From: a virus
Lineage: Duplodnaviria > Caudoviricetes
Virus record (IMG/VR): IMGVR_UViG_3300045999_000501
Span: 1 to 34,553 of that record
Direction: 5' to 3' (one strand)
DNA: 34,553 nucleotides
The notes under the pieces: model-generated
What the model was told of the DNA's origin: nothing
What the model saw: the letters and a program-made list of their open reading frames with translations, nothing else
The model's database searches: none
In this document: in pieces, positions 2,369 to 12,502 of the stretch
Numbering within the stretch: the first letter of the stretch is position 1
Layout of the letters: every line of letters starts with the position of its first letter
Position numbers and translations under genes: made by a program

Positions 2369-2656
2369 TTAATCATCTATCATTTCAATACGCTGTAATT
2401 GAGCAGCAATCTCTGGCGGATTAATAGCTTCAGGTGCATGTTTCTTTCTATGCTCTAATAACTTTTGTTTATAAAAATCAGATTTTTGCAAATCTAATTC
2501 ATAACTACCTTTAAATGGGTATCTCAAATCATAGGCCATTTTACTTCCCATAAGATAACCTTCAAATTGCTCAGGTGTTAGTTTTGCTTCAATTACATCT
2601 ATGCTTTCAATACCACCCACAGTATAGTGAGGTGGCTTGTTTACCATATCAACCAT
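2369..2656 (-). CDS. DUF3310-family protein (related to T7 gp1.7-type nucleotide kinases)
   Basis: DMVNKPPHY..GGIESIDVIE..GYLMG....YDLR....DLQK pattern. Confidence 0.75.
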   Translation of the reverse strand: MVDMVNKPPHYTVGGIESIDVIEAKLTPEQFEGYLMGSKMAYDLRYPFKGSYELDLQKSDFYKQKLLEHRKKHAPEAINPPEIAAQLQRIEMIDD

Positions 2657-2658
2657 GT

Positions 2659-2775
2659 TTATCCCCTTATAAAAAATAAATTAACAATATCATAACAACC
2701 ATATATAAAACCAAAAACACTCAAGCCAATTAACAAATAAATACACCAATCAATTACTTTTTCTAAAAAATCCAT
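2659..2775 (-). CDS. Small membrane protein, 38 aa (MDFLEKVIDWCIYLLIGLSVFGFIYGCYDIVNLFFIRG)
   Basis: Tiles between neighbours; GGAG upstream; single TM. Confidence 0.55.
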   Translation of the reverse strand: MDFLEKVIDWCIYLLIGLSVFGFIYGCYDIVNLFFIRG

Positions 2776-3014
2776 TTTCCATACTCCCTTCCAACTTCAA
2801 CAGATACATAATTTCTATTTTTAAATCGCTTATCTAATTCGTTATTATAAGTCCATTTAGGTAAAGTAAAATAGCCTTGACTTTCCAAGTATTTTAATCG
2901 CTTTCTACAAACCACACATTTTTGCACAATTTCTTTAATACTAGCATTTGGATTTTCTTGCAAATACTTAATAATAAATTTTGCTTGGCGTTGGTCGTCT
3001 AGCATAGTGTACAT
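2763..3014 (-). CDS. Hypothetical protein, possible winged HTH
   Basis: IIKYLQENPNASIKEI...RLKYLESQGY resembles a wHTH. Confidence 0.5.
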   Translation of the reverse strand: MYTMLDDQRQAKFIIKYLQENPNASIKEIVQKCVVCRKRLKYLESQGYFTLPKWTYNNELDKRFKNRNYVSVEVGREYGKWIF

Positions 3015-3247
3015 TATAGTCCACCATGAGCTTCTGCTAATCTTTTACTATCGTATTTAGATATGCCTTTATATTCTTCTACTTCATCACCTGCATACAA
3101 AGGTGTAATCTTTATGTGGTGAGTTGTATTTTTTAGATCATTTAAATATGACAACTGATTGGGATGAAATGACCATAGGTAAGATTTTTTAAGATCACCT
3201 GACTTAACGTCATATTCTTCGTAAAGGTAAGCTAGTGGAGTTTTCAT
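3014..3247 (-). CDS. Hypothetical protein
   Basis: Stop/start overlaps with both neighbours. Confidence 0.6.
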   Translation of the reverse strand: MKTPLAYLYEEYDVKSGDLKKSYLWSFHPNQLSYLNDLKNTTHHIKITPLYAGDEVEEYKGISKYDSKRLAEAHGGL

Positions 3248-3630
3248 TAGTAAAATACCATCCTTCCTATGTGTGTAATTTTTTTATGACCAAACCACGA
3301 ATGTTTTGGACTAATACTGTCATCATGGAAGTATAAAGCATTTGCAACTGGGTTAGCGTATTTATTAAATACAATTGCATCAAGCACCAGTAATTGCGTT
3401 TCAAGATATGTCTTTTTATCAATTTTCTTATGGCTTTTGTCTGAAATGCCAATAAATTGCCCAGAAGCATTAATAACACCGCATACACTAGAACCCCAGC
3501 GACCAGATTTAACCCTATTACGAATGACATTAATGACACCTAGCTTCTCCTCTAATGATCTTGTATTAACTTCATGGTAAACAGCAGTAGCATAACACGA
3601 AACGTCTAATTCTAAATGGTGTATATCCAT
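3247..3630 (-). CDS. SleB/Hydrolase_2-family cell-wall hydrolase (lytic transglycosylase)
   Basis: AVYHE (catalytic Glu), V..VIRNRV, VCGVI....QF, ALYFH and C-terminal IGRMVFY. Confidence 0.85.
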   Translation of the reverse strand: MDIHHLELDVSCYATAVYHEVNTRSLEEKLGVINVIRNRVKSGRWGSSVCGVINASGQFIGISDKSHKKIDKKTYLETQLLVLDAIVFNKYANPVANALYFHDDSISPKHSWFGHKKITHIGRMVFY

Positions 3631-3685
3631 ATATTACACTATAGCTTTTAATGATTTTACTGTTACCCCAAAACCTGTATAAGCG

Positions 3686-3717
3686 TATAATTCACATATA
3701 AATCTAAAAGAAAGGAG
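3686..3717 (+). promoter_or_regulatory. -10 box and RBS of pqqA
   Basis: TATAAT at 3686-3691 (weak -35); AAAGGAG at 3711-3717, 7 nt before ATG. Confidence 0.6.
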
Positions 3718-3724
3718 ATCTACT

Positions 3725-3796
3725 ATGTGGACTAAACCAGCAGCTACAGAAATGCGTTTTGGCTTTGAAGTTACAATGTACGTCATGAACAAGTAA
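3725..3796 (+). CDS. pqqA: Pyrroloquinoline quinone precursor peptide PqqA, 23 aa (MWTKPAATEMRFGFEVTMYVMNK)
   Basis: MWxKP...MRFGFEVTMY signature with the conserved E-x-x-x-Y; canonical length; strong RBS; too short for the ORF track. Confidence 0.95.
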   Translation: MWTKPAATEMRFGFEVTMYVMNK

Positions 3797-3806
3797 TTAG
3801 TTATAA

Positions 3807-3844
3807 ATGATGGGGATGCTCCTAGAAAGGAACATCTCCGTCAT
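3807..3844 (+). terminator. Long hairpin just 3' of pqqA (terminator or stabiliser)
   Basis: atgatggggatg-c-tcct-agaa-agga-a-catctccgtcat; pairs with G-U only on the + strand; poor U-tract. Confidence 0.55.
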
Positions 3845-4091
3845 CTTCAACATCTGCACCCTTAGCAGATTCTTGTGTGGGTTGTGTTCTTGGGATAGCT
3901 TGTTTACCAAGACTAAATTTCAAATCACCTTTTTCAGGCCTATCAGTAATATTAATGTAATAAGCTGTGTTAGGTTGTATATCTTCTGGTGTAATTAAAG
4001 TGCCTTGATAATCGGCCATCCAATCTTCAGTCTTTCTTGTGTTAGGTCTTAAATACGCAATTCCTGGTTTTGGTATAAATCCTTCAGCCAT
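3822..4091 (-). CDS. Putative single-stranded DNA-binding protein
   Basis: Acidic C-terminal tail DDGDVPF; follows exonuclease and annealing protein. Confidence 0.7.
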   Translation of the reverse strand: MAEGFIPKPGIAYLRPNTRKTEDWMADYQGTLITPEDIQPNTAYYINITDRPEKGDLKFSLGKQAIPRTQPTQESAKGADVEDDGDVPF

Positions 4092-4094
4092 ACA

Positions 4095-4643
4095 TTACTC
4101 CTTAATATAAATTGGTTTACGTTTCCATCTTGTTGGTTCTACATCTGTTTCTACAAACTCCATGAATTCTAGCAGTAAAGGTGTATACCAGTCAAGCCAT
4201 TTATCATCTTTCTTAATTAGCTCAACTGTAATGCCATTTGGTGTCCACACACTAAACCATCCCTGCTCAGCTTTATTACAATGTATTTGCATCTGTACTT
4301 GCCAATAATAGCGTTCAGGTATAGTAGGGTAGAATTCCATACTGAAAGGGCATTTTAGCTCTACAGTATCCCCTAATAAATAAGCATCAGGACTTGCACC
4401 CATAGGCAAAGTATCATGCACTATAAGTTTATTACCAGGCTTACATATCTCGCCCATTTCTCTTTCAAAAGCTGACAAAGCATCTTTCTCATGTAAGTTA
4501 CCCCATGCAGTAGCTTCATTACCTTCAAATGGTGGTTCACGCATAGTCATCTGCCGCCAGAGCTTTTGTCTTTCATTGACAGAAGCCCAAGCATTAGATG
4601 CTGTTACTATGTTATGCCTACGATTGTCAGTTAAGTGACTCAT
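4095..4643 (-). CDS. YqaJ/lambda-exonuclease family recombination nuclease
   Basis: TAS, WG..HE, GASPDA, ELKCP and YYWQVQMQ motifs. Confidence 0.9.
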   Translation of the reverse strand: MSHLTDNRRHNIVTASNAWASVNERQKLWRQMTMREPPFEGNEATAWGNLHEKDALSAFEREMGEICKPGNKLIVHDTLPMGASPDAYLLGDTVELKCPFSMEFYPTIPERYYWQVQMQIHCNKAEQGWFSVWTPNGITVELIKKDDKWLDWYTPLLLEFMEFVETDVEPTRWKRKPIYIKE

Positions 4644-5152
4644 GCAGACTTTTTAAGCTCATTAGCATATTCACGCAATTCTTCTTGAATAGCTGGTGTT
4701 AAACTAAAAAACGCTTCTTTAAGTTTACCTGTTTTGTTAGCTTCTAAAAGTTTGTTTTTAGCAACTGTTAATTGAGCTTCAGTAACCACTTCTTTAACTG
4801 GATTACTTTGTTGGTGAATAGCATTAACAACTTCATTAGCTGAAGCAAACTCACTACCAGCAAGACCAAGACAAGCCAAAGCCCTACCGATAGAAGAAGT
4901 TTCACAATTTTCCACATAAGATGTACCATTAATCTGACTAGCCTTTCTAAACTCTTGTGCATGGCCTGTAGCTACAATCTTGCTTTCAGGGTTTACAATC
5001 TGAGTTTTAATTACACATTGGTCATCATCAAGTTTTACAATTTCAGTCATAATTGACCAGCCTTTGTAAATTGTTGATTCCCTAAATTCATTAACTCTAA
5101 GGGCAACTGTTTTGTATTCCTTGCCACGAATATTTACGATACCGTTACTCAT
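4640..5152 (-). CDS. Putative single-strand annealing protein (Rad52/Sak-like)
   Basis: ATGHAQE...ENCETSSIGRAL...G motif; coupled to YqaJ exonuclease. Confidence 0.6.
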   Translation of the reverse strand: MSNGIVNIRGKEYKTVALRVNEFRESTIYKGWSIMTEIVKLDDDQCVIKTQIVNPESKIVATGHAQEFRKASQINGTSYVENCETSSIGRALACLGLAGSEFASANEVVNAIHQQSNPVKEVVTEAQLTVAKNKLLEANKTGKLKEAFFSLTPAIQEELREYANELKKSA

Positions 5153-5370
5153 TCACATTCTCCTTTGCATTTTCCACAGCAGATTCTAGCATCTCCAGTT
5201 CTTGCATCACTTGTTGATAAAACATCAGTTGATCCATATTTAGCATCCATCCTATCGTTATGTTCTTTTAAATCTTGGTTGATTAATTGTAACTGTTTTA
5301 ATATTTCTGATACAGGCTTTAACATATAATTCTCCAGGCAAAGTATGCTACAAACACGATCATAAAGCAA
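5149..5370 (-). CDS. Hypothetical protein (likely start at the internal MLKPVSE)
   Basis: GGAG precedes the internal ATG; the 5' extension overlaps another small ORF. Confidence 0.45.
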   Translation of the reverse strand: MLYDRVCSILCLENYMLKPVSEILKQLQLINQDLKEHNDRMDAKYGSTDVLSTSDARTGDARICCGKCKGECE

Positions 5371-5390
5371 ACAATAAATTTAGTCATCAT
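5319..5390 (-). CDS. Small membrane peptide, 23 aa (MMTKFIVCFMIVFVAYFAWRIIC)
   Basis: AGGAG RBS; tiles the early operon. Confidence 0.5.
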   Translation of the reverse strand: MMTKFIVCFMIVFVAYFAWRIIC

Positions 5391-5490
5391 GTTTCTCCTG
5401 TTGATCTAATAAATGTTCAGCTAACTGTTCTTGCTGTTCAAGACGTTCCATATCGTCTAAGTACGCATCAGGATCTAAATGTCTTTCCAT
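5380..5490 (-). CDS. Small acidic protein, 36 aa (MERHLDPDAYLDDMERLEQQEQLAEHLLDQQEKHDD)
   Basis: AGGAG RBS; TAATG overlap with upstream gene. Confidence 0.6.
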   Translation of the reverse strand: MERHLDPDAYLDDMERLEQQEQLAEHLLDQQEKHDD

Positions 5491-5585
5491 TATATTGCTC
5501 CTGCTAACTTGCCCATAACATATAGGCATAATGCTACATAACACCAGAACGCTATTGCTGTTACTATCATTGTTTTAATTTTCAT
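5490..5585 (-). CDS. Small membrane peptide, 31 aa (MKIKTMIVTAIAFWCYVALCLYVMGKLAGAI); first leftward early gene
   Basis: TAGGAG RBS; directly downstream of the leftward promoter. Confidence 0.6.
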   Translation of the reverse strand: MKIKTMIVTAIAFWCYVALCLYVMGKLAGAI

Positions 5586-11060: not shown

Positions 11061-11417
11061 ATGAATGAATTTATCGCCACACTATTCTTAACTAGAGAAC
11101 TAGCACATAGATACCACTTATCTACTAAAAGCTACTCACAGCACAAAGCTTTAGGTAATTTCTACGAAGATTTACTAGACTTAATAGATGATCTAGCAGA
11201 AATGACACAAGGCGCACATGGCTTACTAGACATACCTATTCTTACAGAAAAGAAATCATACAAAGAAGCTCTATACTGTATCGCAGACAAACTACAATAT
11301 GTAGAATCTAATCGCTATAAAGCATATAGCAAACAAGACACAGCTATACAAAACAAGATAGACGAAATCGTAGCAGTATTTTTAAGCACTATTTACAAAC
11401 TAGAAAACTTAAAGTAA
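11061..11417 (+). CDS. Ferritin/Dps-like four-helix-bundle protein (DUF5856-like)
   Basis: AHRYHL...YSQHKALGNFYE.L..LID.LAE..QG and C-terminal IDEI......YKL. Confidence 0.8.
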   Translation: MNEFIATLFLTRELAHRYHLSTKSYSQHKALGNFYEDLLDLIDDLAEMTQGAHGLLDIPILTEKKSYKEALYCIADKLQYVESNRYKAYSKQDTAIQNKIDEIVAVFLSTIYKLENLK

Positions 11418-11608: not shown

Positions 11609-12502
11609 ATGGCAAGCCTAAGGGATACACTAGCTAACCTTGTAGAACAATACAAGGCAAGTGACACCCCAATGGCAAACTTAATGCGTGGTGACACAGA
11701 GGGTGCTAAGAAATCAGCAGCAAATGCGTTTGAAGGAATGGTTAAAGATCCTTATGGTGGATTAAACGCTTCTACAACAGTAGGATCAAAGTTAGCACCT
11801 ATGTTATTAGGTCATACAGCTTATCATGGTAGCCCACATTTATTTGATAAATTTATACTTGATAAATTAGGAACTGGTGAAGGCGCACAAGCATTTGGTC
11901 ATGGGATGTATTTTGCAGAAAATCCAAAAGTTGCAGAGGTTTATCAAAAGATAGTTCAAGGCCCTGAATCAACTGCTCAAGAATATTTAAAGATGTATAA
12001 AACCCCTGAAAATGCTATTTCTGCATTAGAAAGTGGAATAACACCAAATTTAACTGCTACAGCAAAAAAACATTCTCAGGATGCTATTGATGTATTAAAA
12101 TCAGGTAAAGAACTAACAGGAAATATTTATAAAGTAGATATACCTGATGAATATCTACCTAAAATGTTAGATTGGGATAAACCATTAAAAGAACAAAATT
12201 TTTCATTACTAGATTATGTGGATTATATTCCACCATCTCAACGTGATACTTTAAGTAAAGTAACATCTGATTTAAAAAATAGCGATCTTCCAGCAAGTTC
12301 TTTTTATGAAACTTTATCTCAAGAATTAGGTTCTCCAAAAAAAGCTAGTGAAGCATTAAACAAAGCTGGAATACCAGGCATTAAATATTTAGATGCTATG
12401 AGTAGAGAAGCTGGTGGAACAAGAAATTTTGTAGTATTTGATCCAAACGAAGTAAAAATATTAGACAAAAGTAAAAAACTATCAGATTTATTGAAACAAT
12501 AA
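11609..12502 (+). CDS. ADP-ribosyltransferase-fold protein (similar to ART domains of phage polyvalent proteins)
   Basis: AYHGSPH.FDKF, GEGAQAFGHGMYFAE....A..Y, GNIYKVDIP, GIPGIKYLD, NFVVFD. Confidence 0.65.
   Translation: MASLRDTLANLVEQYKASDTPMANLMRGDTEGAKKSAANAFEGMVKDPYGGLNASTTVGSKLAPMLLGHTAYHGSPHLFDKFILDKLGTGEGAQAFGHGMYFAENPKVAEVYQKIVQGPESTAQEYLKMYKTPENAISALESGITPNLTATAKKHSQDAIDVLKSGKELTGNIYKVDIPDEYLPKMLDWDKPLKEQNFSLLDYVDYIPPSQRDTLSKVTSDLKNSDLPASSFYETLSQELGSPKKASEALNKAGIPGIKYLDAMSREAGGTRNFVVFDPNEVKILDKSKKLSDLLKQ

Follow-up and report, generated by a model that had tools for sequence, protein, structure and literature searches.

Locus and surroundings of the phage pqqA gene

The 23-codon ORF at 3725-3796 (+) of the window, the whole stretch of 34,553 nucleotides analysed here, is a genuine and intact pqqA, a member of the PqqA family encoding a PQQ precursor peptide of 23 aa. 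Its coordinates and translation agree with those quoted in an earlier note on this DNA, and the identification as PqqA made there has been borne out by HMM comparison, with scores above the cut-off for both TIGR02107 (40.4 bits; cut-off 20) and the Pfam family PF08042 (42.4 bits; cut-off 21.1). The ExxxY core is formed by Glu15 (3767-3769) and Tyr19 (3779-3781) and, judging from its identity to host peptides, the product would be cross-linked by PqqD/PqqE and then converted to PQQ. PqqB has no match anywhere in the 34,553-nt window, and no other pqq family was found among the window ORFs scanned against PHROGs (56 ORFs) or Pfam (16 ORFs), in agreement with the lack of pqqBCDE described before; pqqB-E do not adjoin the gene as they would in a pqqABCDE operon, and it stands alone. 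It also runs opposite to its flanking genes, as had been claimed, the ORFs over 2369-3630 and 3822-5544 being all on the minus strand. The features of the locus are the following:

3247..3630, minus strand: cell-wall hydrolase gene of the Hydrolase_2 family (PF07486, 63.4 bits), divergent neighbour
3631..3821, no strand: 191-bp insertion as a whole, flanked by the genes for the SSB-like protein and the cell-wall hydrolase
3649..3663, plus strand: host pqq-regulon box, near-palindrome TMATGA-WWW-TCATKA, likely activator site
3686..3691, plus strand: -10 hexamer TATAAT with no recognisable -35; the 22-23-nt gap to the box recurs in relatives
3711..3717, plus strand: Shine-Dalgarno sequence AAAGGAG, 7 nt before the ATG, conserved in a three-way alignment
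3725..3796, plus strand: pqqA, matching TIGR02107 and PF08042, with E15/Y19 kept in viral copies
3807..3844, no strand: hairpin of 12+4 bp; its right arm belongs to the 3' coding end of the convergent ORF 4091-3822
3822..4091, minus strand: putative SSB-like convergent neighbour, 89 aa, with an acidic DVPF tail

The SSB-like ORF has no PHROG or Pfam match; its positional counterpart in MW202481 carries the annotation of a putative SSB. In one relative (L512), the SSB-like and hydrolase genes lie 18 nt apart without pqqA, and the 191-bp intergenic stretch of the window is therefore regarded as an insertion, with a net size of ~173 bp against this empty site, rather than the cost of about 150 bp given in the earlier note. 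Among 80 relatives fetched by the neighbouring protein 4643-5152, 58 reach the hydrolase gene and 56 of these have pqqA at the same site; the gene is likewise present in 57 of the 63 relatives with at least 1.5 kb of flank. The left junction is bridged by near-identical contigs in the independent runs X3, X7 and X9 and the right junction in the independent runs X3 and X7, with no one contig spanning both. Because both junctions are bridged in independent runs and the synteny is kept in relatives, a chimeric join at the pqqA segment, a concern raised in the earlier note, was rejected.

The window comprises an entire virus record (127-nt direct terminal repeat; CheckV completeness 100%) and represents a podovirus-like phage genome of ~34.4 kb that includes terminase, portal, capsid, tail and primase/helicase genes as well as a YqaJ recombination block (PHROGs, Pfam). 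The location of pqqA among the phage genes of a true viral genome is that expected of an auxiliary metabolic gene. The closest cultured terminase relatives, at 41-44% identity, are Rhodoferax phage P26218, HTVC010P-type pelagiphages and Venkman, and the samples matching the window best are mostly from lakes or other freshwater. No tyrosine integrase (PF00589) was found in the window genome or in four near-complete relatives, nor any integrase or repressor family in the window by PHROGs. A moron of a temperate phage would have a promoter and terminator of its own between conserved genes; here the insertion and promoter elements are present, the 3' hairpin has no T-run, and the temperate lifestyle has no counterpart in an integrase or repressor match. 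Elsewhere in the window, a 297-aa ORF at 11609-12502, directly before the terminase genes, matches the ART-PolyVal ADP-ribosyltransferase domain with 31.5 bits, a score at the Pfam cut-off of 31.2, and positions 11061-11417 encode a DUF5856 protein of PHROG 858 ('starvation-inducible transcriptional regulator').

Promoter, regulatory box and 3' hairpin

The perfect TATAAT and the AAAGGAG ribosome-binding site reported in the earlier note are both present at 3686-3691 and 3711-3717, respectively, yet the hexamer is weak evidence by itself, because the window contains 29 copies of TATAAT and no -35 accompanies this one. A sigma-70 scan of the window called nine sites (13.4 expected) and skipped the pqqA promoter because of the missing -35; leftward sigma-70 matches at 3681-3654 and 3666-3638 were at chance level and were discarded. 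The control unit of pqqA starts upstream of 3686, at a box at 3649-3663 that ends 22 nt before the -10; for a transcription start ~7 nt past the -10, its centre would fall near -41.5. From this position, the box likely replaces the -35 and acts as an activator site.

The box consensus was derived in the present analysis, and its regex, drawn by eye from the same data, matches 60 of 104 non-redundant regions upstream of viral pqqA; shuffled sequences gave 3.4 matches, and other phage genes 7 of 287. A matrix version gave scores above 9 bits in 23 of 30 held-out regions, and with a matrix built from other phages, 3649-3663 is the top site of the entire window (15.7 bits; next 10.1). The block 3648-3668 is invariant in the three-way alignment, and the box precedes pqqA in 115 of 130 viral regions and in 100 of 105 from hosts. 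Matches with one mismatch inside ORFs, as well as a recurring match at the start of an oligoribonuclease gene, were treated as chance.

The arrangement of the box differs between hosts and phages. In hosts, a strong site ends 45-46 nt before the -10 (60 of the 71 host regions with a strong -10), with a weak half-site 23 nt further on. In phages, a single strong site lies 22-23 nt before the -10 in 40 of 87 regions and 44-46 nt before it in 21 of 87. The orphan chromosomal pqqA genes of Methylophilaceae are like that of the window in being stand-alone genes for the same 23-aa peptide with the same upstream box, and differ in this spacing and in their additional half-site, the window phage having one strong site at 22 nt. 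When sites were classed with a host-only matrix anchored on the -10, by which 77 of 105 hosts and 71 of 130 phages could be classified (59 of 130 phages remaining unclassifiable), the strong site was distal in 76 of the 77 hosts and proximal in 49 of the 71 phages, the window included; the proximal slot in hosts holds only the weak half-site, and the host-like distal spacing is kept in 22 of the 71 phages. Phages with the proximal layout occur in 9 of the 27 context clusters, a single cluster comprising 89 loci. Only two of six named phages were classifiable, MEP301 (proximal) and Venkman (distal), and in 16 close relatives of the window a -10 candidate lies at 36 nt from the box instead. One 'host' pqqA with a phage-type proximal box (L211, genome_contigs) possibly comes from a prophage or a misbinned phage contig. 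With the strong site moved next to the polymerase, reliance on the host inducing signal may be lowered or removed.

An RBS-occluding hairpin in the 5' leader was considered and discarded as non-significant (z 0.15 and 0.36), and among Rfam families searched in 14 viral pqqA upstream regions, the window's own included, only a tRNA was found. A second, structured leader, located 66-91 nt upstream of the ATG, was seen in 10-11 of the 120 viral loci (L037, L042, L047, L070, L075, L077, L090, L093, L123 and L126, with L034 by a looser regex). It reads TCAA-[4-5 bp]-AC(C/T)T ... CTCT-[complement]-GA, with stem letters that covary across loci, has no Rfam match, and is absent from the window and from 1.86 Mb of host DNA; it is a candidate regulatory RNA.

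Downstream of the gene, the 3' hairpin of the earlier note is confirmed at 3807-3844 (-23.3 kcal/mol; z = -5.1 on the plus strand, with 0 of 200 shuffles equally stable, and z = -4.3 on the minus strand). It persists in relatives with altered paired letters, as judged by eye. Since it lacks a T-run and was not called by the terminator scan, its status as a terminator is uncertain, and 3'-end protection or a pause site are possible functions. Stable 3' hairpins are general, as 71% of 118 viral pqqA 3' regions fall below -15 kcal/mol vs 12% of random stretches. In two loci (L520 and L526), the place of the shared hairpin just 3' of pqqA is taken by another GC stem, there followed by a T-run as in a classic terminator, which suggests that the window hairpin also marks a 3' end.

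Distribution, selection and host

A tblastn search of phage records gave 12 matches, nine of which are cultured Methylophilales/Methylophilaceae phages, counting only the records that carry the gene: Venkman, P19250A, MEP301, MEP401, MEP402 and four Melnitz records. The other three were a spring-water phage whose peptide is identical and two weak matches to 'Acinetobacter phage MD-2021a'. Podo-, sipho- and T4-like methylophages all carry pqqA. The peptides of Venkman, P19250A, MEP301, MEP401/402 and Melnitz are 77-96% identical to that of the window, and in Venkman and MEP301 pqqA is convergent with recombination genes, as in the window. The expectation that gene callers miss pqqA proved right in the cultured-phage records inspected, as none of six annotates it, and in two of the six a hypothetical ORF is annotated on the opposite strand at this place (MZ577097, L006, 2961-3056; MW202481, L004, 2067-2195). 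The PqqA core pattern was found in an estimated ~2,700 IMG/VR stretches, which are stretches and not genomes. The viral pqqA loci are related, so that these counts do not represent independent events. The 18 plasmid matches, from Burkholderiales and at 60-80% identity or less, include no conspicuous phage-type pqqA. Of four runs of RNA, or possibly RNA, two from the same study contain 1.4-2.3-kb contigs of a relative covering pqqA and its flanks, from which strand and level are not readable, besides many short pqqA pieces from other organisms.

Glu15 and Tyr19 are kept in all 120 viral copies, which had been picked by a pattern in the N-terminal half only, and the pairwise pN/pS over codons 13-23 of 108 distinct viral CDS is 0.08, the pairs not being independent. 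This conservation bears on the notion of a decoy peptide that would sequester PqqD/PqqE and lower PQQ: with the two residues intact in every copy, a peptide that is letter for letter the host sequence and nothing found in its favour, such a decoy is extremely improbable. PqqB was found within 1.5 kb in 0 of 120 viral loci vs just downstream in 13 of 76 host copies.

The window peptide recurs unchanged in 34 of 126 chromosomal matches, for which the records listed come almost entirely from Methylophilaceae, and the nearest CDS, with 70 of 72 nt in common, belong to a Methylotenera MAG and a Methylophilaceae isolate. A host from the family Methylophilaceae is thus well supported from these sequences. 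With no cultured terminase relative closer than 41-44% identity, the LD28/OM43-type host suggested in the earlier note stands at the family level only, the genus being possibly LD28/OM43 or Methylotenera-like. Host genomes examined here have three to five pqqA copies each; for Methylophilaceae, the relevant passage of an earlier survey gives 3-12 copies per genome, usually with one pqqB-G set (Beck et al. 2014, PMC4109929).

Repeated recombination with host DNA could account for part of the near-identity between phage and host pqqA. The 70/72-nt identity would also fit a neutral hitchhiker or an integration-site remnant from the host, and small conserved genes can serve as attachment sites; however, the window genome and the four near-complete relatives have no tyrosine integrase, the gene is kept at its site in relatives under a low pN/pS, and its promoter layout is phage-specific. 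This origin is largely refuted and highly improbable.

A candidate PQQ-supply regulon and the probable role of phage pqqA

A two-site model was built from host pqqA copies with the Methylopumilus universalis locus left out and was run over that chromosome. The top matches were the three pqqA copies (34.1, 32.9 and 21.6 bits) followed by the pqqB operon (18.0 bits); the fifth match was a cytochrome b561 gene (17.5 bits), and the shuffled maximum was 16.3 bits. The M. universalis pqqB operon (G001:C1 near 576378; L390, L458) has no pqqA in front, all three copies being elsewhere. Perfect intergenic boxes were also observed in this genome at G001:C1:443342-443356 and 1202991-1203005 (L388, L392), before a rhodopsin gene (PF01036) and the cytochrome b561 gene, respectively, and the pqq-box regulon may reach energy genes beyond pqq.

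No regulator candidate was found beside the pqq genes of M. universalis among its three LysR proteins and eight response regulators, two of the latter being of the LuxR/NarL type and next to probable sensor genes. LysR-type activators recognise a T-N11-A dyad, with a distal site near -65 and a weak proximal site; the position of the host layout fits this scheme, but the dyad of the box is T-N13-A, with 23-nt spacing. The box core resembles the consensus of Fur, whose repressor sites lie before iron-uptake genes; in hosts, however, the best-scoring targets are pqqA and pqqB, and an arrangement in two sites is unlike that of a Fur box.

In two other Methylophilaceae genomes (L379/G004 and L380/G002), a perfect box precedes a TonB receptor gene, the product of which has PqqU as its best NCBIfam match, with 368-380 bits on a 479-aa part, below the cut-off of 1200. 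This receptor enters into two other explanations. One is that the box is a repressor or feedback operator by the -35 region, with pqqA on only at PQQ shortage, or that the cassette mainly titrates the host regulator. The box is found at genes for both synthesis and import, a pattern known from feedback regulons, and repression is also possible from a site near -41. This explanation is nonetheless unlikely, because the promoter has no -35 hexamer, so that it would be weak without an activator, and because a pure titration site needs no intact, selected ORF. The other is superinfection exclusion instead of energy: a PqqU-like TonB receptor used by competing or sibling phages would be filled or down-regulated through the extra PQQ. 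Besides the box before the receptor gene, it has in its favour that PQQ blocks a PqqU-targeting coliphage (described in a passage of PMC12124388). It is nonetheless quite unlikely, as the window phage has no known receptor, podo-, sipho- and T4-like methylophages with pqqA would hardly share one, and a dedicated exclusion protein would be faster.

The box is absent from all 11 upstream regions of PQQ-dehydrogenase genes analysed, including xoxF/mxaF (best two-site score 6.4), and its interpretation as a general methanol-regulon site was rejected for this reason. As these upstream regions lack it, the box marks PQQ supply and not methanol oxidation as such, and it does not tie the cassette to methanol sensing. 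The same absence at xoxF/mxaF agrees with PQQ being used in infection as an antioxidant or by other quinoproteins rather than for methanol energy, as do a LysR-type gene near pqqA in 12 host loci (e.g., L150:1412-2386) and catalase-like neighbours in some of them, OxyR and catalase being putative labels. Methanol dehydrogenases are, however, the main PQQ enzymes of these hosts, and such a use is very unlikely.

The phage gene probably serves to supply host enzymes with substrate, the likeliest of the roles considered, and would be switched on by a host pqq activator through a compact one-site promoter. Host RNA polymerase would transcribe the phage pqqA, helped by a host regulator that reads the same box at host pqqA and pqqB, and the strong site beside the polymerase would lessen or abolish the dependence on the host inducing signal. 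The extra precursor would feed the host's own PqqB-E enzymes, PQQ for methanol dehydrogenase would keep being made during infection, and the additional PQQ may raise phage yield. One PqqA is consumed per PQQ made, the PqqB-E enzymes being reusable, and the hosts themselves amplify pqqA only and not the rest of the pathway. PQQ is, on the other hand, recycled in catalysis, and a benefit would thus need new dehydrogenase loading or PQQ loss. The latent periods of 17-20 h given for the OM43 phages MEP401/402 in a passage of PMC10580990 would leave time for new cofactor synthesis. In Acetobacter pasteurianus, overexpression of pqqAB increased PQQ by 29% vs eightfold for the whole operon (from a passage of PMC7936290), and the precursor therefore need not be limiting.

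The remark in the earlier note that viral pqqA had been noted before was correct. The Lake Baikal population VP_266, with a predicted Methylophilaceae host, encodes a PqqA for which a boost of PQQ and methanol oxidation in infection was proposed (Coutinho et al. 2020, PMC7678222), and in these respects it resembles the window phage. VP_266, as described there, is T4-like and has a methanol dehydrogenase gene in addition, whereas the window is a 34-kb podovirus-like genome with pqqA as the only pqq/methanol gene found; the passages of that report on VP_266 treat neither promoter nor prevalence. Viral pqqA is also named in a list in PMC13188868. In the main texts on MEP301, Venkman and MEP401/402 the term 'pqq' is absent, and in that on Melnitz it occurs only in a medium recipe; pqqA may be listed in supplements or in the paper on P19250A. 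The published literature searched has viral pqqA only in PMC7678222 and PMC13188868, and nothing on the box, the scope of the regulon, the distal-to-proximal shift or prevalence. Viral pqqA and the idea of a boost are thus already published, while the site shift, regulon scope and prevalence were not found in print.

Cyanophage psbA and other auxiliary metabolic genes encode fast-consumed host gene products and are kept by many unrelated phages of one host group. The products of psbA-type genes are an enzyme or structural subunit, whereas that of pqqA is the peptide substrate of a biosynthetic pathway, and by supplying this consumed peptide alone the phage could tap a cofactor pathway cheaply. 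Tentatively, it is proposed here as a possibility that pqqA is a signature auxiliary gene of Methylophilaceae phages, overlooked in the isolates checked, and that many lineages may have rewired the two-site promoter, with the strong operator beside RNA polymerase, such that the host PQQ regulator would drive precursor synthesis without the inducing signal.

The cultured phage-host pairs with pqqA (Venkman, P19250A, MEP301, MEP401/402 and Melnitz) make the Baikal hypothesis of a viral boost of methanol oxidation directly testable. The box defines a candidate PQQ regulon and, together with pqqA, offers a practical way of recognising viral contigs that belong to Methylophilaceae hosts. If pqqA is indeed a signature gene with a rewired promoter, this would expose an undescribed PQQ-supply regulon (pqqA, the pqqB operon and a PqqU-like importer) and provide a 72-nt host marker for thousands of viral contigs.
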